NCBI GenBank assembly: GCA_965261735.1
Contig: OZ253470.1
Span: 1,184,001-1,248,000 of the forward strand
Length of the DNA stretch: 64,000 nucleotides
Source: Alphaproteobacteria bacterium
Lineage (GTDB): Bacteria > Pseudomonadota > Alphaproteobacteria > SHVV01
Direction: 5' to 3'
Under the pieces are notes generated by a model. That model saw only the letters and a list, made by a program, of their open reading frames with translations, did no database searches and was not told where the DNA came from. The translations under genes and the position numbers were made by a program. Shown here piece after piece: positions 22,359 through 47,673 of this stretch. Numbering within the stretch: the stretch's first letter is position 1; each line of letters opens with the position of its first letter.

Positions 22359-22362
22359 GGAC

Positions 22363-22620
22363 CTAACGCGCGCAGTGCCGGCGGATGCTGTGGGTAACGA
22401 CGCCCCAGGCCTCGCAACCGGCATCATCGAGGTCGATATCGGAAAAGGCCGGGTTCTCGGCGTAGAGGACCAATCCGTCATTGCTCTTTTTCAGGCGTTT
22501 GACCGTCAGCTCGCCATGCAGGACGGCGATGACGATATCGTCGGCCTGGGGCGCGATGGCGCGGTCGACAACGAGAAGGTCGCCGTCGAAAATTCCGGCA
22601 TCGCGCATGGATTCGCCCTG
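22363..22620 (-). pseudogene. umuD: UmuD (S24 peptidase), N-terminus deleted
   Basis: GESM...[12 protein letters not shown]...TVKRL...WGVVT; cleavage-site region and start absent. Confidence 0.85.
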
Positions 22621-23114
22621 TCGTATGTAGCCACATACCACCCGTCGTCAAAATAATCGTCACACGACGAGAATAGGTGTTGTTTGACTCGAAGCACGAT
22701 TGATATCCAGTGGGGCCCGGCTATGCGAACGGAGCTATTTCCGAAAGTGAAAGTTGGTGACGGTGCCCGTGTAATCCACGCCGTTCAAGGGAAGACTCAT
22801 TCTTGCTGGGACCTCGGCGGTTTCCGTGGCCGTGCCGGTGCCGACAATGACGCCGTCCGCGTCGAGCAGCGTGATGCCGTAGCTGCATCCTGAGAGCAGT
22901 AGGAGGGGAAGGATTAAGGAGGCGTCGCACCGTCACCTCTCTGCTGGCCAGTCTGGACTCGGCAGTATCCAGAGTGCGCGCATGGACTCAGCGTAGCGCG
23001 CTGCCGCGGGCCTGCCAACAGGGTGCGAGTCGGCGCCGATTTTGGGGAATTTGAACTCTCAGGTGCCAGCTTCAATCAGCATATACTGCTTGTAGCAAGG
23101 TGTGGGATGCCCGG

Positions 23115-23781: not shown

Positions 23782-24849
23782 CCTTGCCTATCCGGTTTAC
23801 ACCCACACCCACTAGGGCTAGAATGGGCGCAACCCGGATATAGGGGAGCGCGCCATGGATGTTCTCGACCGCGCCGATCTCCCATTCCCGCATTCGCTAC
23901 CCGAGTTCCAGCGACTTTTCCCCGATGATGCGGCCTGCGCCGCCTACCTGGAGAAAGCCCGCTGGGGAGACGGCTTTGCCTGCCCGCACTGCGGCACGGC
24001 GGGAGAGCCGTTCCACTTTGAAAACCGCCCTGGCGTCCTGCGCTGCCGCAAGTGCCGCCAGAACACCGGGCTGACGGTGGGAACAGTGATGGAGCGTAGC
24101 CACACTCCGCTGAACGTCTGGTTCTGGGCCGCTTATCTGGTCGCCAGTCAGACGCCCGGCATGTCCGCCGTGCAGTTTCAGCGGCAACTTGGTCTTTCGC
24201 GCTACGAGACGGCCTTTCAAATTCTCCACAAGCTCCGCTCGGGCATGGTGCGGCCCAACCAAGACAGGATCGGTGGACAGCCCAAGAACCATGTTGAGGT
24301 GGACGAAACCTGGGTTGGCGGGCGAACGCGTGGGGAAGGCCGTGGTGTTCACCACAAGGTTCCCGTCTCCTGTGCCATCGAGGTGCGTCATCGAAAGCCG
24401 GGCACCAAGCTCGACAACCGGAAAGACGGACGCTATGCCGGACGCGTTCGGCTCGCCGTCGTGCTCGACCGTAGCGCCGAGTCGCTCTGTGGGTTCGTCG
24501 AGAGCACCGTCGCGCCGCGATCGCTGATCGTTACTGACGATTGGAGCGGCTATGCTGGCCTCGGGAAGCGCGGCTATGAGCACTTCGCTGTTGCCGAGTG
24601 TGGTGATCCAGAGGTTGCCGAGCAATACCTGCCGATCATCCATCTGGTTTTCGCCAACCTGAAGACGTGGCTGATCGGTATCCACCACGGCGTTAGCCAC
24701 CAGCACCTACAAGCCTACCTCAACGAGTTCACCTTCCGCTTCAACAGGCGGTTCTACCCGTTCAACGCCTTCCGCTCATTGCTCGGCATCGCGGGCGACA
24801 CCTCTGCTCCAACCTATGCCGAGCTTTACTCGGGAGAGTGGCGGCACCC
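23782..24849 (+). mobile_element. IS1595 copy 2; last codons and downstream IR deleted
   Basis: Matches copy 1 up to ...GAGTGGCGGCACCC, then joins the antisense strand of the peroxiredoxin gene. Confidence 0.92.
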
Positions 24850-25314
24850 GGCGAGGTTCACCTCGAGCCCTAGCGCCCTGGTAAAGTTGCCGTTTCCGTC
24901 CGCCAGCATCAGGATCTGGCCGCCGACGTGCTGATCTCCGGCCCAGGCACACATGACGAAGGCGTCGTTAACGGCAAGGCAGGCAATCGTGTCGATTCCC
25001 TTCGCCTTGATTGTCGCGGCACTGGCGACGAACCCGGGTAGATGCTGCGCCGAACAGATCGGTGTGAAGGCTCCCGGAACCGAAAACAGTACCACTCTCT
25101 TGCCACCGAAGAGGTCGCCCGTGGAGATCGCCTGCGGCCCCTCGTCGGTCATCGTCATCAGGCTCGCCGCGGGGATCCTTTCACCAATGAGTATGGTCTT
25201 GCGAAGGCCGATCTCGTTCATCTGGGTGGTGAAGATGTTGTCGAATTGCTCCTTGCTGGCCTTGAACAATTCATCGAGTGATGCCGACCCTACGGCGCGA
25301 TTCTGCTCGGTCAT
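24850..25314 (-). pseudogene. Prx5-type peroxiredoxin with a 37-aa N-terminal leader; C-terminus deleted at the IS1595 junction
   Basis: VVLFSVPGAFTPICSAQHLPGF, CLAVNDAFVM.AW, MLADGNG.FT; ATG 7 nt after the upstream stop. Confidence 0.88.
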
Positions 25315-25321
25315 CGCGGCA

Positions 25322-25849
25322 TCACAGCAGCTCGACGCATCGCGCCAACGCCCGCTCCACGGCGCGATGGAATGCCGCTTCCTCTGGATCCACGGTGGAC
25401 CTGCCGCGGGACATCTCTTCAGGCTGAATTGCGAAGGCCACACCGTCCGCGCTTCCCGTGATCTCGTGTCCATCGCCGGACGAATTGATGTGGGCCCTAC
25501 CGAACTGCGACTTGCTGATGTTTTGATCCGCCAGGATCAGTTTGCACAGAACGATGAACTCATCGCCATCGCGGCGGCGATCCGCCACCTCGTAGCGCCA
25601 CCCGTCGCCATAGCGGTCATCGAGGAAGCGCACCGTTTCCGACGATCCCACCGCGGCCGCCGAGTCGGGTTCGGTTGTCTGGGCCACGGGCCGTGCCGTA
25701 TACGGCCCATCGCCCAGCGAATTGCCCTGACGCCCTGTGCCGGCAAGGCTTGATCCTCGGCCGGCATAGAGTTCCTCGAGCCGTTCGCGATTGCGGCCCA
25801 GCATTTCGTCAAATGCCGACGAGTAGCCGGGCCGGCGGTTGGAGACCAT
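25322..25849 (-). CDS. Hypothetical 175-aa protein: amphipathic leader, linker, Rad52/Rad22-like domain
   Basis: Tightly packed between the amidase and prx genes; homologous to the N-terminal extension of the 32334 protein (LDDRYGDGW...VLCKL...SKSQFG.A.IN...RALARC). Confidence 0.8.
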   Translation of the reverse strand: MVSNRRPGYSSAFDEMLGRNRERLEELYAGRGSSLAGTGRQGNSLGDGPYTARPVAQTTEPDSAAAVGSSETVRFLDDRYGDGWRYEVADRRRDGDEFIVLCKLILADQNISKSQFGRAHINSSGDGHEITGSADGVAFAIQPEEMSRGRSTVDPEEAAFHRAVERALARCVELL

Positions 25850-25860
25850 ATGTTCTTGCC

Positions 25861-26571
25861 TCAGGTTTGGGCGCTGGGCTCGCCGCTCCACCAACGTTGG
25901 AAATCGTGCCGGGCCGTGGCCGCATAGCCGCTCGTGCCGGCCGCCCTCAGGTGCGCCATCACCTCCTCGCTTGAGACAACGTCGCCGTACTTGGCGTCGA
26001 TGTCGAACAGGTTGGCCTCGTGCGGCTCCTCGGCCCGATCGCCGACGCCATCGCGCACCACGATCGTGTGGTAGCCGCACTGCATCGAGTCGATCGCCGA
26101 CGCACGGATGCAGCCACTTGTCGTGCACCCGGTCATAACGATGGTATCGACACCGCGCGACTTCAGGTAGGCATCCACATCGGTGCCAAAAAAGGCGCTG
26201 GCGAACTTCTTTTCCACCACATACTCGCCGTTGTCGGGGGCGATGCGCTCGTCCACCTCGACCATCGGGGAGCCCCTGCGTAGGATGGCCAGCGCAGGCA
26301 CTTTCTTGATGAACATACCCGCGTCCCGAAAGTGCGCCTCATAGGCGATCGTGGTGTACACGATAGGCAGACCGCCGCGCCGGAACGCGGCCAATAGCTC
26401 GTTCGTGACCGCCAACTGATTGGAGAAATCACCACCCAAGGGCGTCGTCGGATCGGTGAACCCCCTGATGAAATCGACGATCAGAAGGGCGGGCTTGGTA
26501 CCATACCCGGCGCGGCCGGCGAAGCCTTTGTGCCGGTACTCCTCAAACGTCTGCTCTTGCCAGTCGTTCAT
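25861..26571 (-). CDS. Isochorismatase-family cysteine hydrolase (N-carbamoylsarcosine/maleamate amidase-like)
   Basis: PALLIVDF, KKFASAFFGT, GCTTSGCIRAS, ANLFDIDAKYGDV; GGAGG RBS. Confidence 0.9.
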   Translation of the reverse strand: MNDWQEQTFEEYRHKGFAGRAGYGTKPALLIVDFIRGFTDPTTPLGGDFSNQLAVTNELLAAFRRGGLPIVYTTIAYEAHFRDAGMFIKKVPALAILRRGSPMVEVDERIAPDNGEYVVEKKFASAFFGTDVDAYLKSRGVDTIVMTGCTTSGCIRASAIDSMQCGYHTIVVRDGVGDRAEEPHEANLFDIDAKYGDVVSSEEVMAHLRAAGTSGYAATARHDFQRWWSGEPSAQT

Positions 26572-26850
26572 TTTGCACCTCCGCAAGAGACCTGAGCCCG
26601 CGACCGCCAGCCCGGCCATCGCAGCGTCGCTCGGCCTCGCTGCCGCCTCGATTTAACACCTCTTGAGGACTTCGATCAACGCGAGCAGAACCGCGGCGAA
26701 CTGGCTTGATCTCCGCCGGTTAGCCCATTATCAACAAAAGGGCAAGGGAGCCCTTCGATTCTGTGGACATCCGGGCCGCGCGATCGGCGGGAGAGACGAT
26801 CGCCGGAGTGAGTGTCTCAAGATCAACGCCAATTCGTGGGAGAGCGACCG

Positions 26851-27924
26851 ATGAGCGATGATTCCACCCCCGATCCCGCCCTAGATCCCGACCGGCAGCG
26901 GCCTCGCGCGGAGGTGCTAGCGGCAGGTGGGCCGCGCTACAGCCCGCGGCCACTGCTCACTCCCTCATCCCACAATTCACTGACCGATGCGCGGCGACTT
27001 AGGGGATCCGGCACGGAAGGCCGCAAGGACATCCTGTGTGCCTTCGGCGTCGACGTAGACGCCGTCGCCGGGTGGCTCGGCTCCTATGGCGGGGAGAACT
27101 CGCCGTGCGACATCTCGCGCGGACTGTTCGCGGGCGAGGTGGGCGTTCCGCGGCTGGTTAAGCTGTTCGACCAGCTCGGCATCAAAACCACGTGGTTTAT
27201 CCCGGGCCACTCGATCGAGACCTTTCCGCAACAAACCAAGCTGGTGGTCGATGCGGGTCACGAAATCGGCATACACGGCTACTCCCACGAAAACCCGATC
27301 GCCATGACGCCGGACCAGGAGGAGGCGGTGCTGGATAAATGCATCGACCTCATCCGCGGCGTCTCCGGGCGCAGCCCTACCGGTTACGTCGCACCCTGGT
27401 GGGAGTTCAGTCCGGTCAGCAACGAATTGCTGTTGAAAAAAGCGATCAAGTACGACCACAGCCTCATGAACGACGACTTTCACCCGTTCTACGTTCGGGT
27501 CGGCGACAGCTGGACTCCAATCGACTACGCCAAGCATCCGCGCGAGTGGATGAAGCCATTGGTACGCGGCGAGGAGACCGATCTGATCGACATCCCGGCG
27601 AGCTGGTACCTCGACGACCTGCCGCCAATGATGTTCATCAAGAGCGCCCCCAACAGCTTCGGCTTTGTCAATCCGCGCGACATCGAGCAGCTTTGGCGCG
27701 ACCAGTTCGACTGGGTGTATCGTGAGAACGACTACGCCGTGTTCACCATGACCATCCACCCCGACGTTTCGGGACGGCCGCAGGTGCTGCTCATGCTCGA
27801 GCGGCTCTACAATCACTTCATCAGCCACCCCGGCGTGCGCTTCTGCACCTTCGACGAAATCGCTGACGACTTCAAACGGCGCTCCCCACGCGATACCGGG
27901 GCGGGCGCAAAGGCCGCCGAGTAG
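26851..27924 (+). CDS. CE4 polysaccharide-deacetylase-family protein (PgdA/PuuE-like) with N-terminal extension
   Basis: [47 protein letters not shown]. Confidence 0.9.
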
Positions 27925-27954
27925 CGGCGCGCCAAAACAGGAGGCGAGACGGAA

Positions 27955-28284
27955 ATGTGCAGCTTGTGCGGGGTGCTCGCAGGCCGGGGGCATTGGACGG
28001 AGTCTTCGAGCCATCCTGAGGCGTTCGCGGACGGCGCGCCAGCGACCCGGCGGGCGGAGCGCCAACGGCGCGCGCGCCTCGCCAGCACGATTCTCAAGTT
28101 TTACGGGCTGACGCTCCGAGATTGGGAGGGCACGTCCTATATATTGCAGGGCGGCACCGGCCGGACCCTTTTGATCGAGAATCTGACTGACCTGTGGGCC
28201 GCCGCCGACCGTATGAGCGGAAGGACCTGCGACCCGCTGGACGCCTCCCTACTGGCCGCGCTAACCGGGGCGGAACATCCATGA
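27955..28284 (+). CDS. Small hypothetical protein with N-terminal CxxC
   Basis: MCSLCGVL..GHW, LTLRDWEG, GRTCDPL; AGGAGG RBS; in operon with cobW. Confidence 0.8.
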   Translation: MCSLCGVLAGRGHWTESSSHPEAFADGAPATRRAERQRRARLASTILKFYGLTLRDWEGTSYILQGGTGRTLLIENLTDLWAAADRMSGRTCDPLDASLLAALTGAEHP

Positions 28285-28297
28285 CTGGCGCTCACCG

Positions 28298-29392
28298 ATG
28301 ACGGACTACGCTTCCCTCCTGCCGATCAATGTCATAACCGGGTTTCTCGGCAGCGGCAAAACCACCCTGCTGCGGGATTTGTTGCGATCGCCGCACCTAC
28401 GCGACACCGCGGTGCTGATCAACGAGTTCGGCGAAGTAGGACTGGATCATCATCTGTTCCGCCACGTCTCCGAGAGCACGGTGCTGCTCGAGAACGGCTG
28501 CCTCTGTTGCGCCGTACGCGGCGATCTCAAGTTGGCCCTGCACGATCTGCTGTCGAAGCGCGACAAAGGAGAGCTGCCCCCCTTCCGGCGCGTCGCGATT
28601 GAGACCTCCGGCCTCGCCGACCCCGTGCCCATCGCCTACACAATCCTGGCCGAACCGGTCCTGCAACACCACTTCCGCCTCGGCAACGTGGTGACCACGA
28701 TTGACGCGGTGAACGGGGCGGGTCAACTGGATCAGTTCGAGGAATCGGTGAAACAGGTCTCCGTCGCCGATCGCTTGGTGTTGACCAAGACGGACCTCTG
28801 CGGTGCGCCGGAGGTTGCGGTGCTTCGCGATATTTTGAGCCGCCTCAACAAGTCGGCGCCGGTGTTCGAGTCGGTCGCGGAGGGGATCGATCCCGAGCAT
28901 CTGCTGGCGCAGGATATTTACAATCCGGGCGACTACCGGGAAGCAAGCCGATGGCTCGTCGACCGTAGCGAACACCCGGTAAGTGCGGAATGCGAGATTC
29001 TCCACCACCACCACGACCCGGGCATCTTCTCCTTTTGCCTGTGTTTCGATCAGCCCATGGATTGGACTGCCTTTGGCGTCTGGATGACGATGCTCCTCAA
29101 CCGCCATGGCGAAAAAGTGCTCCGCATCAAGGGCATGCTCAACGTTGCCGGCCAAGCCGCTCCCGTGCTTATCAACGGGGTGCAGCACATCGTGCATCCA
29201 CCAGCCCATCTCGACGACTGGCCCGACGCGGATCATCGCTCGCGCATCGTGTTCATCGTTCGTGACATGTCGCGCCGGCGCATCGAGGCTTCTCTGGCGG
29301 CCTTCAACGACCTCGCCAATCCGCGCGCCACCATGGACGCCGAAAACCGACCCGGGCCGACCACGGCCCTCGACTCTGCCAGCGTCGGTTAA
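28298..29392 (+). CDS. CobW/COG0523-family metallochaperone GTPase
   Basis: TGFLGSGKTT, INEFGEVGLD, GCLCC, ETSGLADP, HHHH, LRIKG. Confidence 0.93.
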   Translation: MTDYASLLPINVITGFLGSGKTTLLRDLLRSPHLRDTAVLINEFGEVGLDHHLFRHVSESTVLLENGCLCCAVRGDLKLALHDLLSKRDKGELPPFRRVAIETSGLADPVPIAYTILAEPVLQHHFRLGNVVTTIDAVNGAGQLDQFEESVKQVSVADRLVLTKTDLCGAPEVAVLRDILSRLNKSAPVFESVAEGIDPEHLLAQDIYNPGDYREASRWLVDRSEHPVSAECEILHHHHDPGIFSFCLCFDQPMDWTAFGVWMTMLLNRHGEKVLRIKGMLNVAGQAAPVLINGVQHIVHPPAHLDDWPDADHRSRIVFIVRDMSRRRIEASLAAFNDLANPRATMDAENRPGPTTALDSASVG

Positions 29393-29916
29393 GGGGCCGA
29401 GTCGGACGAAGACACCCGCGGTGGTGGCCGGCGCGGACGCCAGCCGATCCTGAAAGCGCGCACCGCGTGGTGGAGCAGGAAAAACGCTATCGCGAGAATC
29501 ACCAGCAAGATGATGGCGAGGAGCTTGCCGCCAAACCCCGCATCGATGATCGGACCACGGCTCATCAAGTGCTCGCTCAGCATCTCGACGGCTTGCAGAG
29601 TGGCGCCGCCAAAAAAGATCAAGGCTATGAGAATGGCTATCTGTAGGGTATCGAAGACGAGCCCTTCGACCTCAAGATCAGTGGCGGCCCGGAAGATGTT
29701 TCTGCGGAAGGATTGCCAATGGGAGACCGCGTAGCCGATCACCCCGACGAGCGACGCGAACCAGAATATGACGTTGGAAAAATGGATGCGCGGAATACTT
29801 TGGGTCAAGTAATCTTCGAACGGCCGATAAAAATAGAGGAAGATCAACAGTATGACGAGACCAACCAGGATGATCCAAAACCTCGGCCGCTGCCAACTGG
29901 TGCTGTCCTGTGCCAT
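29389..29916 (-). CDS. Hypothetical 4-TM membrane protein (paralog of 43637-44104)
   Basis: Four hydrophobic helices and motifs shared with the paralog; start chosen at MAQDST. Confidence 0.8.
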   Translation of the reverse strand: MAQDSTSWQRPRFWIILVGLVILLIFLYFYRPFEDYLTQSIPRIHFSNVIFWFASLVGVIGYAVSHWQSFRRNIFRAATDLEVEGLVFDTLQIAILIALIFFGGATLQAVEMLSEHLMSRGPIIDAGFGGKLLAIILLVILAIAFFLLHHAVRAFRIGWRPRRPPPRVSSSDSAP

Positions 29917-30261
29917 GATGAGCGGGGCCGCTCCGTCCCGGGGGTTCCAGTAGCTGCTTATCGTCTCGGCGCACCTCGGGCAAGCCAAAAAACGGCTCTC
30001 GCCAACCTCGACCTCAATGCACTGCGGTGAATCCGTTCTCACGGAGCCCGCGCGGACCGAACGCTGGTGTGGCTACGGCGGAGCCGGCGGCGGCATCGAC
30101 CCGCAACCTCGGGCTTAGCTTAGGCGCCGGCTTGACTCAGCCTTTCAGCTACCCAAAGAATGGGAGTTGGGCGGAAGGATGGGCGTAGTCCGAGGGAACG
30201 GGGACGGCATCTCGGTCGATTCCCGGCGCTGCCGCGTGAATTTTGGTAACAAGGAAAGGCC

Positions 30262-32325
30262 ATGAGCAGCCGCCTCGGCATTGATGTGGGTGGGACTTTC
30301 ACCGATCTCTTGCTGTTCAACGAGAGTAGCGGCGAAATCCACCTGCTCAAGACGCCGTCCACGCCCGAAGACCAGTCGGTCGGCATTCTCAACGGCGTCG
30401 AGCGGCTGATCGCCCAATCGGGCATACCCGCGGCCGAGATTCAGACGGCACTCCACGGCACCACGGTATCGACAAACATCGTGCTCGAGGAAAAAGGCGC
30501 CAAAGTCGGCCTGCTGGTCACGGAAAACTTCGAGCAGGTGCTGCATTTGGCGCGGTCGCAGACGCCGGGGCCGCTGGCCGGTTGGATCATCATGATCAAG
30601 CCGGATCCGCTCGCGGATCTGGAGTTGACCCGTGGTGTCCCGGAACGCATCAACGCGCGCGGCGAAATCCTCAAGCCGCTCGATGAAGCCTACGTGCGCA
30701 CCGCCATACCGGACCTCATAGAGGCAGGCGTGGAATCGATTACGGTATCATTACTCCATTCCTACGCCAACGCCGCGCACGAGGTACGGATCAAGGAGAT
30801 CATCCAGGACCTGGGAATCGAGGTGCCGGTTTCGCTGTCCAGCGAAATTCTCCCGGAGTTTCGTGAATACGAGCGGACTCTGGTCACGGTGATGAACGCC
30901 TACGTGCGGCCCAGCATGCGCAGCTATCTGAGGAACTTCGAGGACAAGTTGCGCAGCATCCAGTTTTCGCCCCATGTGAACATCGTGCGCTCCGATGGCG
31001 GACTGATGAGCGTGGAGCGCGCCTCCGAGTCCCCCGTCTACACGATGTTGTCCGGGCCGGCGGGCGGGGTTTCGGGTGCCGCTTTTCTCGCCGCGCTGGC
31101 CGGGAGCCCCAATGCTCTCGGTTTCGACATGGGTGGCACCTCGACCGACGTTTCGCTGATCCAAGATGGCCAACCGATGATCTCGCGCCAGACCTCGCTC
31201 GGCTATTACCCACTGAAGGTGCCCTCCGTCGAGGTACACAGCGTCGGCGCAGGTGGCGGCTCCATCGCCCATGTGCCGATGACCGGCGCTCTGCGCGTCG
31301 GTCCCGAGAGCGCGGGCGCCGCGCCTGGCCCCGCCTGCTACGGTAGGGGCGGCGACCAGCCCACGGTGACGGACGCCAACGTGGTGCTCGGGCGCTTGCC
31401 GCCGAGCCTGCTCGGCGGCGACATGGCGCTGGACGTCAAGGCGGCCGAGGAAGCGGTGGCGAAGATCGGGCGCGCCCTTGGTCTCGACACCTACCAGGCG
31501 GCTCAGGGGATTCTCGATATCGTCAACGAGAACATGTTCGGGGCGCTGCGACTGGTATCGGTGCAGAAGGGTCTCGATCCGCGGGACTTCGCGCTCGTCG
31601 CCTTTGGCGGGGCGGGCCCCCTTCACGGCAATGCCATGGGCGCGCTCGCGCAGTGCTACCCGGTGATCATCCCCCCGACCCCTGGAGTGCTCTCGGCCCT
31701 AGGGTTTCTCTACTCGGACGTAAAGAACGAGTTCGCCAAGACGTTTATCCGCAATCTCAACGAAGTGCATGCCGGCGATGTGACGGAAATCTTGACGCGG
31801 CTAGGCACTGAGGCGACAGCGTGGCTGCGCGAGGAAGGCATCGAGGAGCGAAGCCAGGAGCTGCGCTTCGAGGCCGACGTGCGGTATTTTCGCCAGGGCT
31901 ACGAGATCTCCCTTACCGTGACCCCCAGCACGTTGGTCAATGGCGGAATCCAGGATATTGAGAATCGTTTCGGCGCCATCCACGAACGGCTGTATGGTTT
32001 CAAGTTGGATGCGCCGGTCGAGCTCGTGAACCTGCGCGCCGTCGGTACCGGCCGGGTGGTGAAGATCAAGTTCCCGAGCTTCGAGAAGCAAGGCAGCGAT
32101 CCCTCCCCCGCCATGGTGGATCAACACCGGGTCTACTTCGACGGCAACTTTGTGTCGGCCAACGTTTACGATCGCAACCTGCTCGCCGCGGGCAACCGCA
32201 TCTCGGGCCCAGCGGTGGTCACACAAACGGATTCGACCACCCTCATCCACCCCGCGCACAGCGGAGAGGTGGACGCGTATCTGAACATCTTGATTTATCC
32301 GCAGGGCGCGAGTCCTTCGGCATGA
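30262..32325 (+). CDS. Hydantoinase/oxoprolinase A subunit (ATP-binding), copy 1
   Basis: GIDVGGTFTD, HGTT, SGPAGG, DMGGTSTD, GAGGGSIA, PTVTDAN, AFGGAGPLH. Confidence 0.93.
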   Translation: MSSRLGIDVGGTFTDLLLFNESSGEIHLLKTPSTPEDQSVGILNGVERLIAQSGIPAAEIQTALHGTTVSTNIVLEEKGAKVGLLVTENFEQVLHLARSQTPGPLAGWIIMIKPDPLADLELTRGVPERINARGEILKPLDEAYVRTAIPDLIEAGVESITVSLLHSYANAAHEVRIKEIIQDLGIEVPVSLSSEILPEFREYERTLVTVMNAYVRPSMRSYLRNFEDKLRSIQFSPHVNIVRSDGGLMSVERASESPVYTMLSGPAGGVSGAAFLAALAGSPNALGFDMGGTSTDVSLIQDGQPMISRQTSLGYYPLKVPSVEVHSVGAGGGSIAHVPMTGALRVGPESAGAAPGPACYGRGGDQPTVTDANVVLGRLPPSLLGGDMALDVKAAEEAVAKIGRALGLDTYQAAQGILDIVNENMFGALRLVSVQKGLDPRDFALVAFGGAGPLHGNAMGALAQCYPVIIPPTPGVLSALGFLYSDVKNEFAKTFIRNLNEVHAGDVTEILTRLGTEATAWLREEGIEERSQELRFEADVRYFRQGYEISLTVTPSTLVNGGIQDIENRFGAIHERLYGFKLDAPVELVNLRAVGTGRVVKIKFPSFEKQGSDPSPAMVDQHRVYFDGNFVSANVYDRNLLAAGNRISGPAVVTQTDSTTLIHPAHSGEVDAYLNILIYPQGASPSA

Positions 32326-32333
32326 GGTGAACC

Positions 32334-34625
32334 ATGACTGACCTGAACCCGCCGCGCAGATCGGTCTCGCTGGACGACTTGCTGAAGGCCAACAAGGCGC
32401 AGTTCGACAGTGTCTTCGCGGCCCAGATGAGGGACACGGGCCTGGTGAGCGTGACCCATCGGCCGGCCACGGCAGAGGATCTTGTCTCGGCTAGCCTAGG
32501 GGTCCGGGCGGTCGTCGACGGCGACGATAGTACGGCACTCCTCGACGGGCGGTTTGGCGAGGGTTGGTCATCCGAGGTCGTCGAACACAAGACCGAAGGC
32601 GGCTCGGTCACGGTGCTGTGCAAGCTCGTGGTGGACGGGGTTTCAAAAATGCAGTTCGGTGCGGCACGGATCAACGGCGATCAGGGTGCCGCTCTGCAAA
32701 GGGCGACCGACGAGGCGCTCAAGAAGTGTGCGGCCCTGTTCGGGCCGCGAGAGGGGCTGCCGGAGGCAGAGGCCGGAGGCCCCGCCGCCCGACCGCAAGA
32801 GGCGCCGGCCGCGGGAGCCCAGCCCGATGCCGCCGTGCCCAGCCTCGCCGCCCCCACTAGCCGTGCGCTGGACACGATCACCCTGGATCTCATCGAAAAC
32901 GCGCTGCGCAACGCCCGGCACGAGATGGACGCCGTACTCTTCCGCTCCGCCATGTCACCCGTGATCCGCGAGCAACACGACGAGTTTCCCATGATCACCG
33001 ACCCCAAGGGGCGGATGATCGTCGGCCAGTTCGGCTCCTACGTCGCCGAGATGCTGCGCGAGCAGAACATGCAGGTTGATCCGGGCGACGTCATTCTCAA
33101 TAACGATCCCTTCAAATGCGGCGGCGCCATCAGCCATATCAACGATTGGCTCGTGCTCGTGCCGATCTTTCACGGCAACGAACTTGTCGGCTTCAGCTCC
33201 ATGTTCGGCCACATGATGGACGTCGGCGGCTGGGTGCCCGGCAGCATGCCGACCGCCGCCACGTCGATCTTCGGCGAGGGAATCCGCATCCCGCCGATCA
33301 AGATCTACGCGAAGGGCGAGATCAACAAGGCGGCGCTCGGCATCATCATGAACAACACGCGCACGCCCGAAATGAACTACAGCGACCTCATGGCTATCAT
33401 CGCCGGCTGCCGTGCCGGCGAGAAGCGGGTGATCCAGATCTGCGACCGCTTCGGTAAGGACACCTACATTCAGGCGTGTGAGGCCCTGCTTGAGCGTACC
33501 AACCGCGCGATGCGGCAGCTCATCGTTCAGAACCTGCCCAATGAGCCTCAGTCGTTCGAAGACTACGTAGATGATGACGGCTGCGGCAACGGCCCCTTCA
33601 AGATGAAACTGACCGTGTGGCGCGAGGGCGACGAGGCCTTCTTCGATTGGACGGGGACCTCAGATCAGGCGCCGGGTCCGATCAATTTCTTCCTCAACGA
33701 GGGCATGTTCAAGATGTTCATCGGGGTCTACATGATCATGGTGTTCGACCCCCAGATTCTCTTCAACGACGGATTCTACGACCTCATTCACGTGACCCTA
33801 CCCAAAGGGTCGCTCGTGCACCCGGAGTTCCCGGCAGCGCTGGGCTGCCGCACGCACGCCCTCGCCCGCCAGTTCGACGTCCTCGGCGGCGCGCTGAGTA
33901 AAAACGCGCCGGAAATGGCCACTGCCGCCGGCTATGGCTCAAGCCCTCACTTCCTGTACTCGGGCGTTGACGGCGATGGCCGCCCGTTCCAGCTCATGGA
34001 GATACTGTTTGGCGGGATTCCCGGCCGCCCGGTAGGCGACGGCATGGATGGCCACTCGTGGTGGCCGCTATTCGAGAATATTCCCACCGAATACCTCGAA
34101 ACCTACTATCCGATGATCATCGAAAACTACACCACGCTAGCCGACACCGGCGGCGCTGGGAGGCACCGCGGCGGCAACGGCGTCGAAAAGGTTTACTTGT
34201 TGTTGGAGAACGGCGAGATCTCCATCCACGATGACCGCCATCTCACCCAGCCGTGGGGGATTCTCGGAGGACAACCGGGCGCTTGCTCGGAAAAATGGCT
34301 GGAGAAAGAGGACGGGTCCAGGGAGCCGTTGCCCTCGAAGGTGGACAACGTAAGAGTGCGCGGGGGCGACAGGATCATCTTCCGCACCGCCGGCGGCGGC
34401 GGCTGGGGCGACCCATTGGAACGCGAGCCGGCAAAGGTGCGCGGCGACGTGGTGCGCGGTCTCTTGACCGTGGGCGCCGCCCAGGAACGGTACGGCGTGG
34501 TCATCGGCAGCGTCGGGCTCACCATTGACGACCGGGCGACCCAGGAGTTGCGCGAGAAGCTGAAAGGGAATCGAGGGACCCTCCCGGTGTTCGATTTTGG
34601 TGCGCAGCCATCGGGTCATGCATGA
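32334..34625 (+). CDS. Hydantoinase/oxoprolinase B subunit, copy 1, with ~178-aa N-terminal extension
   Basis: Catalytic part starts at LDTITLDLIENAL; NDPF...SHIND, GHMMDVGG..PGS, AGGGGWGDP; GAGGTG RBS. Confidence 0.93.
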   Translation: MTDLNPPRRSVSLDDLLKANKAQFDSVFAAQMRDTGLVSVTHRPATAEDLVSASLGVRAVVDGDDSTALLDGRFGEGWSSEVVEHKTEGGSVTVLCKLVVDGVSKMQFGAARINGDQGAALQRATDEALKKCAALFGPREGLPEAEAGGPAARPQEAPAAGAQPDAAVPSLAAPTSRALDTITLDLIENALRNARHEMDAVLFRSAMSPVIREQHDEFPMITDPKGRMIVGQFGSYVAEMLREQNMQVDPGDVILNNDPFKCGGAISHINDWLVLVPIFHGNELVGFSSMFGHMMDVGGWVPGSMPTAATSIFGEGIRIPPIKIYAKGEINKAALGIIMNNTRTPEMNYSDLMAIIAGCRAGEKRVIQICDRFGKDTYIQACEALLERTNRAMRQLIVQNLPNEPQSFEDYVDDDGCGNGPFKMKLTVWREGDEAFFDWTGTSDQAPGPINFFLNEGMFKMFIGVYMIMVFDPQILFNDGFYDLIHVTLPKGSLVHPEFPAALGCRTHALARQFDVLGGALSKNAPEMATAAGYGSSPHFLYSGVDGDGRPFQLMEILFGGIPGRPVGDGMDGHSWWPLFENIPTEYLETYYPMIIENYTTLADTGGAGRHRGGNGVEKVYLLLENGEISIHDDRHLTQPWGILGGQPGACSEKWLEKEDGSREPLPSKVDNVRVRGGDRIIFRTAGGGGWGDPLEREPAKVRGDVVRGLLTVGAAQERYGVVIGSVGLTIDDRATQELREKLKGNRGTLPVFDFGAQPSGHA

Positions 34626-34720: not shown

Positions 34721-37537
34721 ATGCTCGACATAGCGATCCCAATCCTCATCTTCGCGATCATTGTCATCGCCATCCTGTATGTCGTCTCAATCTGGATTTA
34801 CAAGCGTTCGCCCACCAACATGGCATTCATCCGCACCGGTTTCCTGGGCACCAAGGTATGCCTGGGCCGGGGCGCTCTGGTGTTTCCGGTTTTCCACGAG
34901 GTCACTTGGGTTTCCCTGGAGACGATCAAACTCATCGTAAGCCGCGCCCGTGAGCAGGGCGTTCTCACAGCCGACAAGATCCGCATCGACGTCGGCGCCG
35001 AGCTCTACGCCCATGTCGGCCACACGCCCGAGGCCATTCTCACGGCGAGCCGGAGTTTGGGCGAGAAGACATTCGACGCCGAGAAGGTACGCAACCTGCT
35101 CGAGGCCAAGGTCGTCAGCGCGCTCAGGAGCTACGCGGCGACCAAGACCCTTAGCGAGCTGCACGAAAACCGGGACGCCTTTGCCCGCGAAATCAAAGCT
35201 AGTGTGACGGAGAGCTTTGAGGCCAATGGCCTCACGCTTGAGGAAGTGACGATCGTCACCATGGAGCAAACGCCAAAGGAGTACTTCAAGACCGACAACG
35301 TGTTCGACGCCGAGGGGCTCAAGATCATCACGGAAATCACTTCCGATGCCCGTAGAGAGGTCCACGACACCGAGAAGCGCACGACCGTGTCCATCCGCCA
35401 GAAGGACCTGGACACGCAACTCGAGCTCCTCGAAATCGAACGGCAGGAGGCCGTCGCCCGGGCGGGCCAGGACAAGGCAGTATCCAACGAGCAGGCGCTT
35501 CAGCTCGGCCAAAAGCAGATCTACGTTCTCGACCAGCGCAAAGCCGTCGAGGAAAAGGAGATCGAGAACGAGAAAGCGCTGGAGCGCATGCGGACCGATC
35601 GCGATCTGATCATCACCGAAGAGGCGAAGAAGCGCGAGGCTTCCGAGATCCAAAAAGAGTTGGCACTAGAGCAGGAGCGCAAGGACCGGGAGATTGCGAT
35701 TATCGCCAAGGCGAGGGAAGAAGAGCTGGCCAACATCGCACGCAATCTAGCTCTCGAGCAGGCTGAGAAAGATCGCCAAATCGCCTTGATCGCCAAGGCG
35801 AAGCAGGAGGAATTGGCCGATATCGAGCGAGCGCTGGCACGCGATCGGGCCGCGAAAAACAGCGAAATCGAGCTCATCGCCACGGATCAGGAACGCCAGC
35901 AGACTGAGATTCAGCGTGCCACGGCGGTTATGGCCGAGGAGGAGGCGGCACGCGATCGGCGCCATCAGGCTGGTGAGGAGGCCGCCATATCCATGCGCAG
36001 GCGTAGCCTCCAGACCCGCCTCAGCACGCTTGACCTGGACAAGGACGAGGCGTTCGCCGAAGCCCGCCAGGAGCAAGAGGTGTCCAACGAAAAGGCGCGC
36101 GTACTCAGCGAACAACAGCGCTTCATCCTCGAGCAGCGTTGGCAAGTCGAAGAAGAAGAGATCAACAAGGCGCGGGCGGTCGAGGCCGCCGAAATCCACA
36201 AGGAAGCCGGAATTATCGAAACCATGAAAACACGCGAGGCCGCCGAGGTGCGCCGTGCCCTGGCCCGCGAGCAGGAGGAAAGGGACCGTGAGATCGCGCT
36301 GGTCGCCAAGTCGCAGGAGCTCGAACAGGCGGAAATCCGCCGCAAGTTGGCGGGCGAACAGGAAGATCGCGACCGCCAGCTCGCCCTTGTCGCCAAGGAG
36401 GAAGAGCTGCGACGTGCCGAGGTGAGGCAGGCCCTGGCGGTCGAGCTCGAGGAACGAGCCCGCGAGATCACGCTCATTGGCAAGGAACAGGAGCGCGAAA
36501 TAGCGGATATCGGTCGCTTTCTGGCGCGCGAAAAGGAGGAACGCGACCGCGAGATCGCGTTGGCCGAAAAAACTCGGCAGCTGGAGGAAGCGGAGATCAA
36601 GCGCCTGGAGGCCTCCGCAAAGAGGGAGCGGGCCCAGCACAACGTGGAATCGGTGAGCCTCCTCGCCGACGCCGAGCGCACCAAGAACATCGAACGCGTC
36701 GAAGCCGAAAGGTTGGCTGAAAGCCGTCGGATCGACGAGGAAAATAAGGCCCAGATCAACCGCATGCACATGCTGGCTCAAGCCGAGACGCGGAAGCTGT
36801 CGGCTGAGCAGGAATCCGATGCGACGCTCATCAGAGCTCGCGCTACGAGCGAGGCCCAGAAGATTACCGCCGAGGGGATCGAGAAGGAGGCGGGGGCCAC
36901 AGGCCGGGCCGAAATGGAGATCGAAGCGCTGCGTGCCGCCAACGCCCGGCGCATGCTCGAGGCCGAGGCTTCAGGCCTTGAAGCCAAGGCGGTCGCGCTG
37001 AAGAAGTACAACGAGTCCGGGGCCTTCCTGGAATTGGCAAAGATGCGTATCGAGGCCGAGCGCGACATCCACATCGATCAGGCCAAGGCCATGGGGAGCG
37101 CCCTGCAGGGTGCGCAAATCCGCATGTATGGCGGCGAGAATGGCACCGTCGATACCATTCGCAGCATGTTTACCTCTGGGTTCGCGCTCGGCGAGGTTCT
37201 GGAGGGGGTGGCGCAGTCCTTACCCGAGGGCTTGCGCGGGCGATTCAAGGACAACGGCCTCAGGGGTCTTTTCGGCAAGCCGTACGGGACCAGCGATTTC
37301 AAGCATTCCATCGAGGACTTGAGCAAGCTGGTCCAGAAGAGCTTGCGTACGCGCAAAGACAAGGAGATCCCCTTCGCGGAAGCCGTGACCATTTTGCAGG
37401 AAAAGGCCGGCGGGGATGACGGCCAGGCGAAAGCGGTCGGCCTTCTCAAGGAGATGAACGAACAGGGGCAATTCGACGACCTTTCCTTTGACAAGGTGTG
37501 GGCGCTTATAAGAGCCGCGGCAAAGTCGGCGGACTGA
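34721..37537 (+). CDS. Very long flotillin/YqiK-like SPFH protein (938 aa)
   Basis: N-terminal TM, AFIRTG.LG.KV...PVFHE, LT.DKIRIDV, ALRS.AA...L.ELH..R..F, NGL.LE.V, N.FDAEGL..IT; long E/R/A/K helical region; IRMYGG flotillin C-domain. Confidence 0.9.
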   Translation: MLDIAIPILIFAIIVIAILYVVSIWIYKRSPTNMAFIRTGFLGTKVCLGRGALVFPVFHEVTWVSLETIKLIVSRAREQGVLTADKIRIDVGAELYAHVGHTPEAILTASRSLGEKTFDAEKVRNLLEAKVVSALRSYAATKTLSELHENRDAFAREIKASVTESFEANGLTLEEVTIVTMEQTPKEYFKTDNVFDAEGLKIITEITSDARREVHDTEKRTTVSIRQKDLDTQLELLEIERQEAVARAGQDKAVSNEQALQLGQKQIYVLDQRKAVEEKEIENEKALERMRTDRDLIITEEAKKREASEIQKELALEQERKDREIAIIAKAREEELANIARNLALEQAEKDRQIALIAKAKQEELADIERALARDRAAKNSEIELIATDQERQQTEIQRATAVMAEEEAARDRRHQAGEEAAISMRRRSLQTRLSTLDLDKDEAFAEARQEQEVSNEKARVLSEQQRFILEQRWQVEEEEINKARAVEAAEIHKEAGIIETMKTREAAEVRRALAREQEERDREIALVAKSQELEQAEIRRKLAGEQEDRDRQLALVAKEEELRRAEVRQALAVELEERAREITLIGKEQEREIADIGRFLAREKEERDREIALAEKTRQLEEAEIKRLEASAKRERAQHNVESVSLLADAERTKNIERVEAERLAESRRIDEENKAQINRMHMLAQAETRKLSAEQESDATLIRARATSEAQKITAEGIEKEAGATGRAEMEIEALRAANARRMLEAEASGLEAKAVALKKYNESGAFLELAKMRIEAERDIHIDQAKAMGSALQGAQIRMYGGENGTVDTIRSMFTSGFALGEVLEGVAQSLPEGLRGRFKDNGLRGLFGKPYGTSDFKHSIEDLSKLVQKSLRTRKDKEIPFAEAVTILQEKAGGDDGQAKAVGLLKEMNEQGQFDDLSFDKVWALIRAAAKSAD
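35660..35920 (+). repeat. 29-aa (87-nt) degenerate repeat block 1 in the SPFH protein, 3 units
   Basis: LALEQERKDREIAIIAKAREEELANIARN / LALEQAEKDRQIALIAKAKQEELADIERA / LARDRAAKNSEIELIATDQERQQTEIQRA. Confidence 0.85.
36260..36607 (+). repeat. 29-aa degenerate repeat block 2 in the SPFH protein, 4 units
   Basis: LAREQEERDREIALVAKSQELEQAEIRRK / LAGEQEDRDRQLALVAKEEELRRAEVRQA / LAVELEERAREITLIGKEQEREIADIGRF / LAREKEERDREIALAEKTRQLEEAEIKRL. Confidence 0.88.
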
Positions 37538-37557
37538 GCCGGCGCTCGGGACAGGGC

Positions 37558-45432: not shown

Positions 45433-47673
45433 CTAGCGAGACCGCAATCGCTGGGTCTCCTCCGAATTCAGGGTGTCAGCGACCGGATCGATGGCGACTC
45501 CGTAAACATCTCGGGCGATCTCTATTGTTATGTAGTCGTCCAGATAATCGCCCAGCACCATCGCCGGATCACGCGCTTTAGGATCGCCGTAGCCACCGCC
45601 GGAGGGCGCCGTGATTTGGATCAGATCGCCAGCTTCCATCTTATATCCGGTGACCTTGGAGGGCCAGTTCTGCTCTTCTGCCGTGCCCGGGTTCTTAACG
45701 AGCTTGCCCGTGTGGCCTTCCGTCCCACCGAAGACGCCGTGCGGCTTTTCCAGGTGGCGGTCCGCCTCACACGAGATGTAACCCGGTGCGAGGAACCGGT
45801 TCTCGCGCACGATGCCGATGCCGCCGCGCCACTGGCCGGCGGCCGGAGGATCGGGCCGCAACTCGTAGCGCTCGTTGCGGATCGGATAGTGCATGTCGAG
45901 CTCTTCGACCGGATTGTTGCGCGTGTTGGCCATAAGGTTGTCGACGCTGTCCATGCCGTCCTTGCCGTGTCGGCCGCCGTAACTCCCCTCGTCGACCTCC
46001 AGATAAACCCAGTATTGCTGTTTCTCGGGAATGAACCCGCTGTAGGAGATGAAATAGAGCGACGCGGAATTGCCCCCGGTCGCCCTTTCCGGGATGACCG
46101 GCGACAGCGCGTGAATGACGCAGTCCAGCACCCTCTGAATCTGGGCGAAGCGTGAAAAGCAGGCGCGCGGAAAGTTTGGATTGAAGATCGTGCCCTTGGG
46201 GGCAATGACGTTGACCGGGCGGAAGATGCCCTCGTTTTGCGGGATGAACTCCTCGAAGGTCACTTCGTCCAGCATTAGGGTACGAACGATGTAGTTGCAA
46301 GCGACCACGAGACTGCCCTCGAAGGGCACGTTGAAGCCGGTCTCCACCTCGGCCGCCGACCCGGTGAGGTCGATGGTGATGTCGCTGCCCTTGACACGCA
46401 CGGTGACGTTGACCTTCAGCGGCGTATCGCGGTTTTTCCCGTCGTCATCCAGCCAGCCCTCGGAGTGGTACTCACCGTCGGGAACCTTTTCGATCTCGGC
46501 GCGCAGCATTCTTTCCGAGTAGTCCATCCAATAGTTTGCCGTGCCCATGACGGTGTCCGCGCCGTATTTCCCGACGAGCCGCAGAAAACGCTCGCGTCCG
46601 ATTTCCACCGCCGCGATCATCGCCTCGATATCCGAGGTATCCATGTCGGGGGTGCGCACGTTGTCCTTGAGGAGTTGCCAGACCTCCTCGTTACGGGTTC
46701 CGCGGTCGTACAACTTGATGGCGTTGAAGAGCTTGGACTCGGCGTAGACGTCGACCACGTCGACATTGATGCCGGGGGCGGCGCCGCCCATGTCGAGCAG
46801 GTGCGCGGTGCAGGCGGAGAACCCCAATAGCCCGCCGTCATGAACGATGGGCACGATCACGGCCACGTCGGGCGTATGCGAGGCGCCGTAATAGGGGTGG
46901 TTGTGGATGATGACGTCGCCCTCGTGGATGTTGCCGGCCAACCGTTTCAGGATGCCTCTGATGTACCAGGGAAGAGAACCGATGTGCATCGGCGTGCTCT
47001 CGCTCTCGCAGAGCTCATTCCCTTCCATGTCGAAAATGCCGCAACCCAGGTCCTCCGACTCGCGAATGATGCTCGAGTAGGACATTCGGTAAAGGACGTG
47101 GGCCATCTCCTTGGCGATGGCGTTGAAGGCGCCGCCCACCACGCGAAGCGTGACTGGGTCGAGGTCCTGATATGAAAAGTCGGTAATCTTCGATGGCGCC
47201 GGACGGCCAGTCAGCGCCACCGCGGTCGAAACTGGCTCGGAGTCGGCCTGTCGCAACGCTGGCAGCTGGGGCGCGGGCGCCGGCCGCAGAGCCTCCGCCG
47301 CCGGTTCCGTTGCCTCGGGCGGGGAGGCTACCGGAGCGTCCGTTGTGGCCGGTAGCCCCGGTCGCGGCCGGACCGTGTCCGGCGGCGCGGCGCCCCGCCC
47401 GGTATCGACGAGCGTCATTGCGCACTGGAGGAGGCTGTCGTCGGAGGCGACCTCGAGCTGCTCGCCCAGCGACAGACCACCGCGCCCGTTGGCCGTTCCC
47501 GATTTTCGCACCTGGGCGCCGTCCGCCCGCAGCTCGCCTTCCACTTCCACGCCGTCGCCACGCAGGTGGTGGTTGATAATGTCGAAACTCCAACCGTCGC
47601 CGTAGGCGTCGCGGAGTGCCTTGACGACGGCGGGGACGGTTGTTGGTCCCGTCGTACTTGGCGCGTCATTCAT
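45433..47673 (-). CDS. Hydantoinase/oxoprolinase B subunit, copy 2, with ~165-aa N-terminal extension
   Basis: Catalytic part from LDPVTLRVVGGA; SSIIRESED, NHPY.G.SH.PD, AHLLDMGG, GGGYGDP. Confidence 0.93.
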   Translation of the reverse strand: MNDAPSTTGPTTVPAVVKALRDAYGDGWSFDIINHHLRGDGVEVEGELRADGAQVRKSGTANGRGGLSLGEQLEVASDDSLLQCAMTLVDTGRGAAPPDTVRPRPGLPATTDAPVASPPEATEPAAEALRPAPAPQLPALRQADSEPVSTAVALTGRPAPSKITDFSYQDLDPVTLRVVGGAFNAIAKEMAHVLYRMSYSSIIRESEDLGCGIFDMEGNELCESESTPMHIGSLPWYIRGILKRLAGNIHEGDVIIHNHPYYGASHTPDVAVIVPIVHDGGLLGFSACTAHLLDMGGAAPGINVDVVDVYAESKLFNAIKLYDRGTRNEEVWQLLKDNVRTPDMDTSDIEAMIAAVEIGRERFLRLVGKYGADTVMGTANYWMDYSERMLRAEIEKVPDGEYHSEGWLDDDGKNRDTPLKVNVTVRVKGSDITIDLTGSAAEVETGFNVPFEGSLVVACNYIVRTLMLDEVTFEEFIPQNEGIFRPVNVIAPKGTIFNPNFPRACFSRFAQIQRVLDCVIHALSPVIPERATGGNSASLYFISYSGFIPEKQQYWVYLEVDEGSYGGRHGKDGMDSVDNLMANTRNNPVEELDMHYPIRNERYELRPDPPAAGQWRGGIGIVRENRFLAPGYISCEADRHLEKPHGVFGGTEGHTGKLVKNPGTAEEQNWPSKVTGYKMEAGDLIQITAPSGGGYGDPKARDPAMVLGDYLDDYITIEIARDVYGVAIDPVADTLNSEETQRLRSR

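Follow-up and report, generated by a model that had tools for sequence, protein, structure and literature searches.

Introduction

Bacterial microcompartment (BMC) encapsulation peptides are N- or C-terminal amphipathic helices of ~18 residues carried by microcompartment cargo, and encapsulin cargo is loaded by means of short C-terminal tags. SPFH-domain proteins other than flotillins also form cages with clients, examples being HflK/C with FtsH, stomatin with NfeD, and the vault INT domain; we know of no flotillin-targeting peptide. Here we analyze a 64,000-nucleotide stretch of an alphaproteobacterial genome (GenBank assembly GCA_965261735.1, contig OZ253470.1, positions 1,184,001 to 1,248,000 of the forward strand; hereafter the window) in which one N-terminal leader peptide of about 37 residues is found on three proteins: the beta subunit of a putative ATP-dependent hydantoinase/lactamase (HyuB1), a Prx5-type peroxiredoxin (Prx), and a protein of 175 residues that we call p175. 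From sequence, structural models and gene neighborhood we propose, at slightly better than even confidence, that the leader serves as an "assembly tag", a modular helix for protein-protein docking, in a flotillin-linked system for hydantoin or lactam catabolism in Alphaproteobacteria.

How does this locus compare with the systems above? Like the BMC encapsulation peptides, the leader is a short terminal helix found on unrelated proteins that belong to one pathway, with a poorly conserved linker behind it in HyuB1 and p175, and it appears modular and transferable. Unlike them, it is longer (a ~22-residue helix within 37 residues), acidic and weakly amphipathic; the sequence itself is strongly conserved, not only its pattern; and on Prx there is almost no linker. 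Searches of this 98%-complete, single-contig genome gave no match to the BMC shell family PF00936, with positive controls in E. coli and Synechococcus, and none to the encapsulin family PF04454, with working controls, which leaves the BMC analogy without a shell. As with encapsulin cargo, a short tag marks proteins encoded beside a scaffold gene; in contrast to the encapsulin tags, the leader is N-terminal and helical. The leader-linked domain in HyuB1 and p175, for its part, has the alpha-beta-beta-beta-alpha core of the Rad52/Mgm101/Sak single-strand-annealing proteins, whose N-terminal domain forms rings, but its partners, in fusions and in gene neighborhood, are catabolic enzymes and not recombination genes, and in p175 it has an extra hairpin.

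SPFH cage systems share with this locus a dedicated SPFH/flotillin gene in an operon-like block with presumed clients; they differ in that the presumed clients here are soluble catabolic enzymes with a short tag. A cage of flotillins 1 and 2 is described in two reports (PMC11260169, PMC11348225), and a flotillin-associated rhodopsin cluster, although a different cluster, is a precedent for a client-specific flotillin paralogue (PMC10308929). The ATP-dependent hydantoinase/5-oxoprolinase/caprolactamase HyuA-HyuB enzymes are treated in PMC8453981. The catalytic parts of the two HyuA-HyuB pairs in the window, HyuA1/B1 and HyuA2/B2, are ordinary members of this group; HyuB1 is unlike its nearest flotillin-less relatives in carrying an N-terminal extension of ~175 residues that comprises the leader, a short motif, the Rad52-like domain and a linker. 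Among the papers listed by keyword searches of the literature, none dealt with this architecture or connected flotillin or Rad52 with HyuAB-type enzymes; targeting peptides were not queried, and supplementary files might list such clusters.

A conserved N-terminal leader on three proteins

The leader occupies residues 1-37 of HyuB1 (32334..32444, plus strand) and, in the HyuB1-type form recognized by BLASTP, alignment and a hidden Markov model (HMM), residues 1-37 of Prx (25204..25314, minus strand). Alignment, AlphaFold2 (AF2) modeling and profile-profile comparison place a diverged copy of the same helix at residues 1-31 of p175 (25757..25849, minus strand; gene 25322-25849, starting at 25849). 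Counted on the alignment, 19 of 37 residues are identical between the HyuB1 and Prx leaders, ungapped from Met1, and BLASTP of the two N-termini against each other gives an E value of 1e-10. For a non-circular search we took 110 HyuB homologues, all from other organisms, made an HMM of their first 45 residues, and ran it against all 69,042 six-frame open reading frames (ORFs; at least 40 residues) of the 5.03-Mb genome. It matched HyuB1 (E 3e-24) and the Prx ORF (E 5e-14), and the next match had an E value of 0.5. This foreign HyuB-leader HMM missed the p175 leader in the same search; comparison of the p175-family and HyuB-leader profiles with hhalign gave a probability of 95% and an E value of 2.7e-8, residues 8-29 aligning with residues 8-29. 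The leader searches of the genome taken together found HyuB1, Prx and p175 only and no further tagged cargo.

The leader is conserved at the protein level and is under purifying selection. It is near-invariant across the 110 HyuB homologues, where it is among the most conserved stretches (core S-L-D-D-L-L-K-A-N-K-x-Q-F-D-x-I-F), and it is also kept in 30 p175 homologues of 151-199 residues. Between the HyuB1 and Prx leaders the proportion of synonymous differences (pS) is 0.54 and that of nonsynonymous differences (pN) is 0.20; over codons 10-37 of 25 orthologous HyuB leaders the values are 0.645 and 0.195 (pN/pS 0.30). The starts of the leader-bearing ORFs are credible from sequence: GAGG precedes the ATG of both HyuB1 and p175, the Prx ATG lies 7 nucleotides past the p175 stop, and the leader homologues begin at the same Met.

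AF2 predicts helices at residues 13-34 of HyuB1 and 10-31 of p175, each followed by a stretch with a predicted confidence (pLDDT) below 50 and then by a folded domain. The hydrophobic residues form a narrow seam (L13, L16/17, N20, F24, V27/F28), in which the central Asn is kept in the same register in HyuB-type and p175-type leaders, and D14, K21, Q23 and D25, outside the seam, are conserved equally in the HyuB leaders. Over residues 11-34 the three leaders have net charges of -1, -3 and -1; their mean hydrophobicity is below zero, and their hydrophobic moments are matched by 0.44, 0.09 and 0.73 of shuffled sequences. By these measures the helix is acidic and weakly amphipathic and looks protein-binding rather than lipid-binding. 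Read directly, with no dedicated predictor, the three leaders show no hydrophobic stretch and no twin-arginine motif of the kind expected of Sec or Tat signals.

Most of what the original prediction had said of the leader itself holds. The coordinates and the 19/37 identity are borne out, the fit of the 175-residue protein to the same register is upheld by the profile comparison, and conservation at the protein level and the lack of a Sec or Tat core agree with the codon comparison and the direct reading, respectively. The worry that true starts might lie downstream is eased by the shared Met1 and, for HyuB1 and p175, the upstream GAGG. With regard to the amphipathic helix that had been predicted, the helix is supported by the models of HyuB1 and p175; its amphipathicity is weak, the moment being no higher than that of shuffles.

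Carriers and modularity of the leader

Which proteins carry the leader? The first 150 residues of HyuB1 found 158 proteins at E <= 0.1, and the 120 listed all contain PF02538, most being ~770 residues long. A profile of 12 leaders searched against 1.84 billion representative proteins (E <= 0.001) gave 99 matches, four of which were already known (the peroxiredoxin P0001, the HyuB proteins P0030 and P0054, and the p175 homologue P0140). BLAST of the non-leader parts assigned 32 of the 95 new matches to the HyuB type and 23 to the p175 type. By eye, most of the 40 left unassigned were fragments, short or frame-shifted, whose continuation resembles HyuB or p175. A Pfam scan covered the ten of these with at least 90 residues, not the 30 shorter ones, and returned an isochorismatase read-through (P0236), one sub-threshold chance match, and nothing for the other eight. 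P0242, a repeat protein, was judged spurious and dropped as a carrier.

The carriers fall into five architectures. The leader is followed by a Rad52-like domain and HyuB, as in the 158 proteins above; by a short motif, a linker and HyuB with no Rad52-like domain (P0165, P0183, P0197, P0231, L046); by a Rad52-like domain alone (p175); by a linker and a short C-terminal motif in proteins of ~70 residues, which we call mini-p175; or by Prx5. In mini-p175 a Pro/Ala-rich linker joins a leader of the p175 type to the C-terminal sequence G-R-S-D-G-x-D-F-S-F, and there is no Rad52-like core; the mini-p175 gene comes next after the isochorismatase gene in five of five marine metagenome-assembled genomes (MAGs; L057-L061) and in L055. 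The C-terminal motif corresponds to the hairpin inserted in the p175 domain, and the two short motifs of mini-p175 may be the functional ends of an adaptor. Thus the helix and the Rad52-like domain occur together, each occurs alone, and the helix occurs on an unrelated enzyme. These sequence comparisons support the leader as an independent, selected module on otherwise unrelated proteins, followed by a variable linker of low model confidence.

With the exception of the tagged protein described here, the peroxiredoxins of this type that we compared have no leader. The 49 Prx5 relatives from metagenomes all start near the equivalent of residue ~40, and none has the leader by any of three leader profiles; two Prx5 paralogues elsewhere in the genome (60% and 54% identity) are likewise leaderless. 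P0001 is the sole Prx among the 99 profile matches and the only protein found by a leader-only word search of 89-284-residue proteins in a set of 5.8 billion, and among 401 genomes of the class a second leader match occurs in just one, the genome studied here. P0001 is a 202-residue intact form of the window's Prx, to which it is 100% identical over residues 1-155. In the window identity ends at 24850: an insertion sequence (IS) of the IS1595 family cuts Prx at codon 155, leaving residues 38-155 as a remnant of the Prx5 domain (24850..25203, minus strand) that retains PGAFTPIC and scores 87.7 bits against Redoxin (PF08534). The frame continues into the IS sequence to a stop at 24826, and the last 47 residues of P0001 were not found anywhere in the genome. 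Only about three residues separate the leader helix from the Prx fold.

The IS spans 23783..24849 on the plus strand (PF12762/PF12760; transposase ORF 23855-24934). Sequence contigs of four runs aligned to the window show a depth step that marks a high-copy element at 23783-24849; none was reported to join the two sides of the IS, and one DNA contig (run X3) extends 152 letters past 24849 into sequence unlike the window. RNA-library contigs cover 24849-25093, 25188-25381 and 25227-25435, and there are contigs among them that bridge the p175-prx junction; as evidence this is weak, since libraries of this kind can contain DNA. At 25304 two RNA libraries have contigs with G for T, which by our reading changes codon 4 of Prx, within the variable head of the leader; this is a strain variant, not evidence of editing.

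The HyuB relatives offer a second comparison. Those with 52-64% identity in the catalytic region, which are closer catalytically than some flotillin-linked ones (46-48%), are found in at least 16 genomes without the dedicated flotillin and without a leader match. Their stop-to-stop frames are ~600-780 residues long, mostly 630-685, and their genomes have either no leader match or one, in a flotillin-linked copy. One flotillin-linked HyuB (G075:C1:1278073-1279806) has a single in-frame TAG in the catalytic region, which may reflect an error of sequencing, loss of gene function or recoding.

The prediction that ordinary Prx5 and HyuB proteins lack the leader is therefore confirmed, by the Prx5 relatives on one side and the short-framed, unmatched HyuB relatives on the other. 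A leader confined to one family, or a one-off gene fusion, had been named as the outcome that would speak against a general tag; the leader is present on HyuB, p175 and mini-p175, while the Prx copy belongs to one lineage. Similarly, all three of the proteins said to be tagged do carry the leader, but they are not three independent examples, because HyuB1 and p175 have the whole N-terminal module in common.

A Rad52-like domain in HyuB1 and p175

The HyuB1 gene (32334-34625, plus strand) encodes, after the leader, a second short motif at residues 41-55 (32454..32498; consensus HRPPT..DL.SASL), recognized by its conservation in the alignment, with R43, P44, T46, D49, L50, S52, A53 and S54 near-invariant. 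This motif lies between the leader and the Rad52-like domain and is found in HyuB-type carriers only, being absent from Prx and p175. The Rad52-like alpha-beta-beta-beta-alpha domain (residues 66-135; 32529..32738) is modeled by AF2 with a pLDDT of ~90 and is followed by a Pro/Ala-rich linker (residues 139-176; 32748..32861) that is predicted to be disordered (pLDDT below 50) and is variable among homologues. The Hydantoinase_B/oxoprolinase catalytic region follows (32871..34415; PF02538, E 1e-149). PF02538 scores 499.8 bits for HyuB1 and 525.1 bits for its paralogue HyuB2, and a HyuA gene adjoins each; HyuA1 (Hydantoinase_A), the partner subunit of HyuB1, is at 30262..32325 on the plus strand by Pfam and NCBIfam. 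The nearest NCBIfam model to HyuB1 is caprolactamase beta, below its cut-off: the caprolactamase CapB and CapA equivalogs score 240 and 524 bits, compared with cut-offs of 1000.

In p175 the corresponding domain spans residues 71-174 (25328..25639, minus strand; pLDDT above 90), with a hairpin inserted at residues 130-141 (25427-25462). HyuB1 and p175 are homologous over ~140 residues, not just 37 (E 7e-15). In both, the linker between helix and domain varies in length, with a pLDDT below 50. PF04098 (Rad52_Rad22) reaches 16.8 bits on HyuB1 (cut-off 20.3; E 0.0065), and the Pfam scan of p175 gave no PF04098 match. When the p175 model was searched with Foldseek, RAD52 chains filled the top 11 rows (best E 1.2e-3), and RAD52 is undecameric in the PDB entries matched. 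With human and yeast RAD52 and Mgm101 as the closest structures to the p175 model, VIA-align gave a Z score of 9.9 for 8tkq_A (root-mean-square deviation 3.0 over 82 residues), 9.6 for yeast Rad52 and 9.2 for Mgm101; the Rad52-type matches span 76-85 residues, and the next unrelated fold has a Z score of 7.3. Neighbors of the domain in the ESM Atlas likewise carry Rad52_Rad22 or Sak. A search of the p175 profile against PDB chain sequences returned no RAD52 and a single chance match (E 1.5), so the likeness rests on the fold, one sub-threshold Pfam match and the ESM features. As modeled, the domain after the leader is Rad52-like in fold and is not a family member, falling below every sequence threshold.

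The leader cluster and its dedicated flotillin

The genes around the leader form a cluster that is conserved in relatives: isochorismatase-p175(-prx), PuuE-like hydrolase-p109-CobW, membrane protein, and HyuA1-HyuB1-flotillin. The isochorismatase-family hydrolase (isochorismatase 1; 25861..26619, minus strand; PF00857) is the first gene of the isochorismatase-p175-prx operon. In all 13 loci that show this side, as well as in 5 further genomes, the next gene is p175 or mini-p175. The conserved upstream block (26812..29392, plus strand) encodes the PuuE-like hydrolase of polysaccharide-deacetylase fold (26812-27924), a 109-residue protein, p109 (27955-28284), and a CobW-type GTPase (28298-29392). 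We note that p109, which matches no family, starts with Cys-x-x-Cys and always lies between the other two genes; it may be a metal-handling partner of CobW. Divergent from hyuA1 is a conserved gene for a small polytopic membrane protein of 217 residues (29389..30042, minus strand), which has a paralogue at 43637-44104.

The cluster ends in a gene for a 938-residue flotillin (34721..37537, plus strand), laid out as an N-terminal membrane anchor, an SPFH domain, a long coiled coil and a conserved C-terminal domain. The SPFH (Band_7) domain PF01145 is found at residues 45-190 with 60.3 bits (cut-off 23.6), the hydrophobic N-terminus and a repetitive Glu/Ala/Arg-rich region can be read from the sequence, and no NCBIfam model matched the protein. 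Among the 31 leader loci we examined, 3 stop at the contig end downstream of hyuB; in the remaining 28 the flotillin gene lies directly downstream of the leader-hyuB gene without exception. A full-length flotillin orthologue (at least 59% identity) is present in 5 of 6 leader genomes among 61 relatives, the sixth being 89% complete and in 530 contigs, and in 0 of the 55 others; relatives without the dedicated flotillin have SPFH paralogues at only ~35-40%. Across the 401 genomes of the class, the flotillin C-terminal domain was detected in 18, all at E <= 1e-74 with none weaker down to 1e-10. The leader was detected in 17 of the 18, at 4-5 kb upstream on the same strand, and the last (G084) has a diverged leader recognized by eye. 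No genome of the 401 has the leader only, and neither leader nor flotillin was detected in 383. The 18 genomes represent 14 genera and are related, and these counts do not amount to a statistical test.

What does the cluster do? Together with a D-hydantoinase/dihydropyrimidinase (42161-43627, plus strand; NCBIfam 599.8 bits, cut-off 393), which lies between the two HyuAB clusters and adjoins ABC-transporter genes (37498-42041), the presence of HyuAB, an isochorismatase-family amidase and the PuuE-like hydrolase suggests catabolism of a hydantoin, lactam or ureide.

Interpretation of the leader

What is the basis for reading the leader as a docking helix? The cluster in which it occurs always closes with a giant flotillin gene of its own, and the leader is therefore most likely a tag for gathering proteins at the membrane. 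The primary carriers would be the beta subunit HyuB1 and the small non-enzymatic p175 or its mini form, and the Prx5 encoded directly behind p175 would have acquired a copy of the HyuB-type leader in this lineage. We propose that the helix, on its flexible linker, binds a common receptor through the narrow hydrophobic seam. HyuA1B1, the adaptor with its ligand, and Prx would in this way be gathered in one assembly on the cytoplasmic face of the membrane, with p175 and mini-p175 possibly serving as adaptors for the hydrolase encoded in the same operon. The Rad52-like domains may be ring-forming hubs that provide multivalency, a role we suggest because their structural relatives form rings. The receptor is most likely the 938-residue flotillin, the alternative being pairing of HyuB-type with p175-type leaders. 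We favor the flotillin since the paralogous clusters contrast, one having both leader and flotillin and the other neither, and it is the only candidate in the cluster for forming a cage; its link to the leader comes from gene co-occurrence alone. A complex prediction with the whole flotillin (25-row alignment) and residues 1-60 of HyuB1 scored 0.00 in a run without controls and speaks neither for nor against binding.

Several observations weigh against this proposal. Prx, the truly independent cargo, is, judging from the database searches, a single-lineage fusion, and the tagged Prx is dispensable here, since the IS truncates it. The hydrophobic moment of the leaders is unremarkable next to that of shuffled sequences. 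Identity between leaders of the p175 type and the HyuB type is only ~20%, and they may therefore bind different receptors. Finally, the co-occurrence counts are not independent, because the genomes are related, and they cannot single out the flotillin, because the membrane protein, the PuuE-like hydrolase, p109 and CobW always travel along with it. Of the three roles that had been offered for the leader, targeting or docking fits its modularity and the selection on it, whereas the encapsulation analogy fails for want of shell genes.

By analogy with eukaryotic flotillins, the proposal can be carried further. The 938-residue flotillin could form a membrane-attached cage with the leader as cargo-targeting peptide and Rad52-derived rings as multivalent hubs, making up a flotillin-based enzyme compartment. 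The ATP-dependent hydantoinase/lactamase would lie inside, the adaptor would bring the next hydrolase, and Prx would have been added in one lineage. We hold this extended form to be speculative and rather unlikely. Were it true, it would give the first SPFH-cage targeting signal and the first recombination-protein fold used as a metabolic scaffold. The roles of bacterial flotillins and the way in which they choose clients are largely open, and here one paralogue is tied gene for gene to a soluble enzyme system. A short, transferable and conserved tag turns client recognition into a concrete hypothesis, in which a peptide meets either flotillin or an adaptor, and a tag that works as proposed would offer a compact means of bringing foreign enzymes to a membrane scaffold. 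The Rad52/Sak-type fold in catabolic enzymes is an unexpected reuse of a recombination-protein scaffold. Even if the tag proposal fails, the domain architecture of this HyuB subfamily is one that had gone unremarked, and the subfamily is widespread among Alphaproteobacteria, both marine and host-associated.

Could the two classes of leader instead bind each other? HyuB-type and p175-type helices might pair as a coiled-coil-like heterodimer, with p175 or mini-p175 as the receptor and the flotillin involved indirectly or not linked at all. Pairing is favored because the two leader classes co-occur universally and Prx, with its HyuB-type leader, is encoded 7 nucleotides behind p175: both classes are present wherever both sides are in view (G000, G001, G004, G006, G056; 13/13 loci; 5/5 marine MAGs). 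The mid-seam Asn, in register in both classes, also fits. Common membership of the cluster, however, explains the co-occurrence equally well, and the residues outside the seam, D14, K21, Q23 and D25, are conserved just as strongly. We regard leader pairing as possible but unlikely.

The helix might also belong structurally to the Rad52-like module, as its N-terminal element, in which case the Prx copy would be a functionless relic of hyuB-prx recombination. In HyuB1 and p175 of this genome the helix does always precede the domain, and the Prx fusion is confined to one lineage and disrupted here by the IS. Against the structural role, the helix occurs without the domain in mini-p175 and some HyuB proteins, the domain occurs without the helix in HyuB2, and the variable-length linker of low pLDDT separates the two. 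As for a relic, the Prx leader retains the conserved seam residues, yet its best identity to any HyuB leader is 23/38 (~60%), with synonymous change near saturation. Together these points make the structural-element and relic explanation improbable.

A role in regulation or maturation, not in localization or assembly, is to our minds a slim prospect; the helix might inhibit its own carrier, act as a degron, or serve as a handle for the CobW metallochaperone or p109. The leader is accompanied by CobW and p109 as strictly as by the flotillin, and on Prx almost no linker separates it from the fold. Autoinhibition or metal delivery is nevertheless hard to square with a leader on the non-enzymatic p175 and on mini-proteins of ~70 residues. 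We rejected, as very improbable, an amphipathic helix that anchors its carriers directly to the lipid bilayer: the i, i+3/4 spacing of hydrophobic residues and the membrane proteins and flotillin of the cluster would suit it, but membrane binding is unlikely because the helix is acidic and weakly amphipathic, as its net charge, mean hydrophobicity and hydrophobic moment show. Least probable of all, with terminal position and helical character in its favor, is a Sec/Tat signal or a peptide for encapsulation in a BMC or encapsulin shell, given a genome with no PF00936 or PF04454 match, leaders with neither a hydrophobic core nor a twin-arginine, and carriers from cytoplasmic enzyme families.

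The paralogous cluster and the surrounding sequence

The second HyuAB cluster of the window lacks both the leader and its own flotillin gene. It lies on the minus strand and encodes HyuB2 (45433..47673), HyuA2 (47686-49764), a second isochorismatase (49819-50505) and two membrane proteins (43637-44104 and 44254-45315). By Pfam and the leader searches HyuB2 is leaderless, with its Rad52-like domain (47413-47616) at the very N-terminus, followed by a linker and HyuB. The small polytopic membrane proteins of the two clusters (29389-30042, 43637-44104 and 44254-45315) belong to no known family; the first two are paralogous, the 155-residue protein being 37% identical to orthologues of the 217-residue one. 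That both clusters encode such proteins hints that both HyuAB enzymes are at the membrane.

Copies or fragments of IS1595-family (ISXO2-like) elements also occur at 627-1646, 50518-51453, 53577-54842 and 56902-57921. Since copies at 23.8 kb and 50.5 kb flank the two HyuAB clusters, the ~26-kb block between them may move as one composite unit. In its left third the window consists of an IS-rich plasticity zone, which also contains a fragment of a type IV secretion system coupling protein (6943-8166). Further transposases in the window include two DDE_3 ORFs of equal length (12669-13778 and 17768-18877) and DDE_Tnp_1 and Mutator-family ORFs (5690-6826; 15767-16951). Genes of the UmuC-like (impB/mucB/samB) and UmuD-like (Peptidase_S24) kinds (21282-22641, minus strand) adjoin the IS that cuts prx. 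Finally, a leaderless haem peroxidase of 729 residues (10452-12641, plus strand) with two Pfam peroxidase stretches lies 12 kb from the tagged Prx; by size and architecture it looks like a KatG-type catalase-peroxidase.

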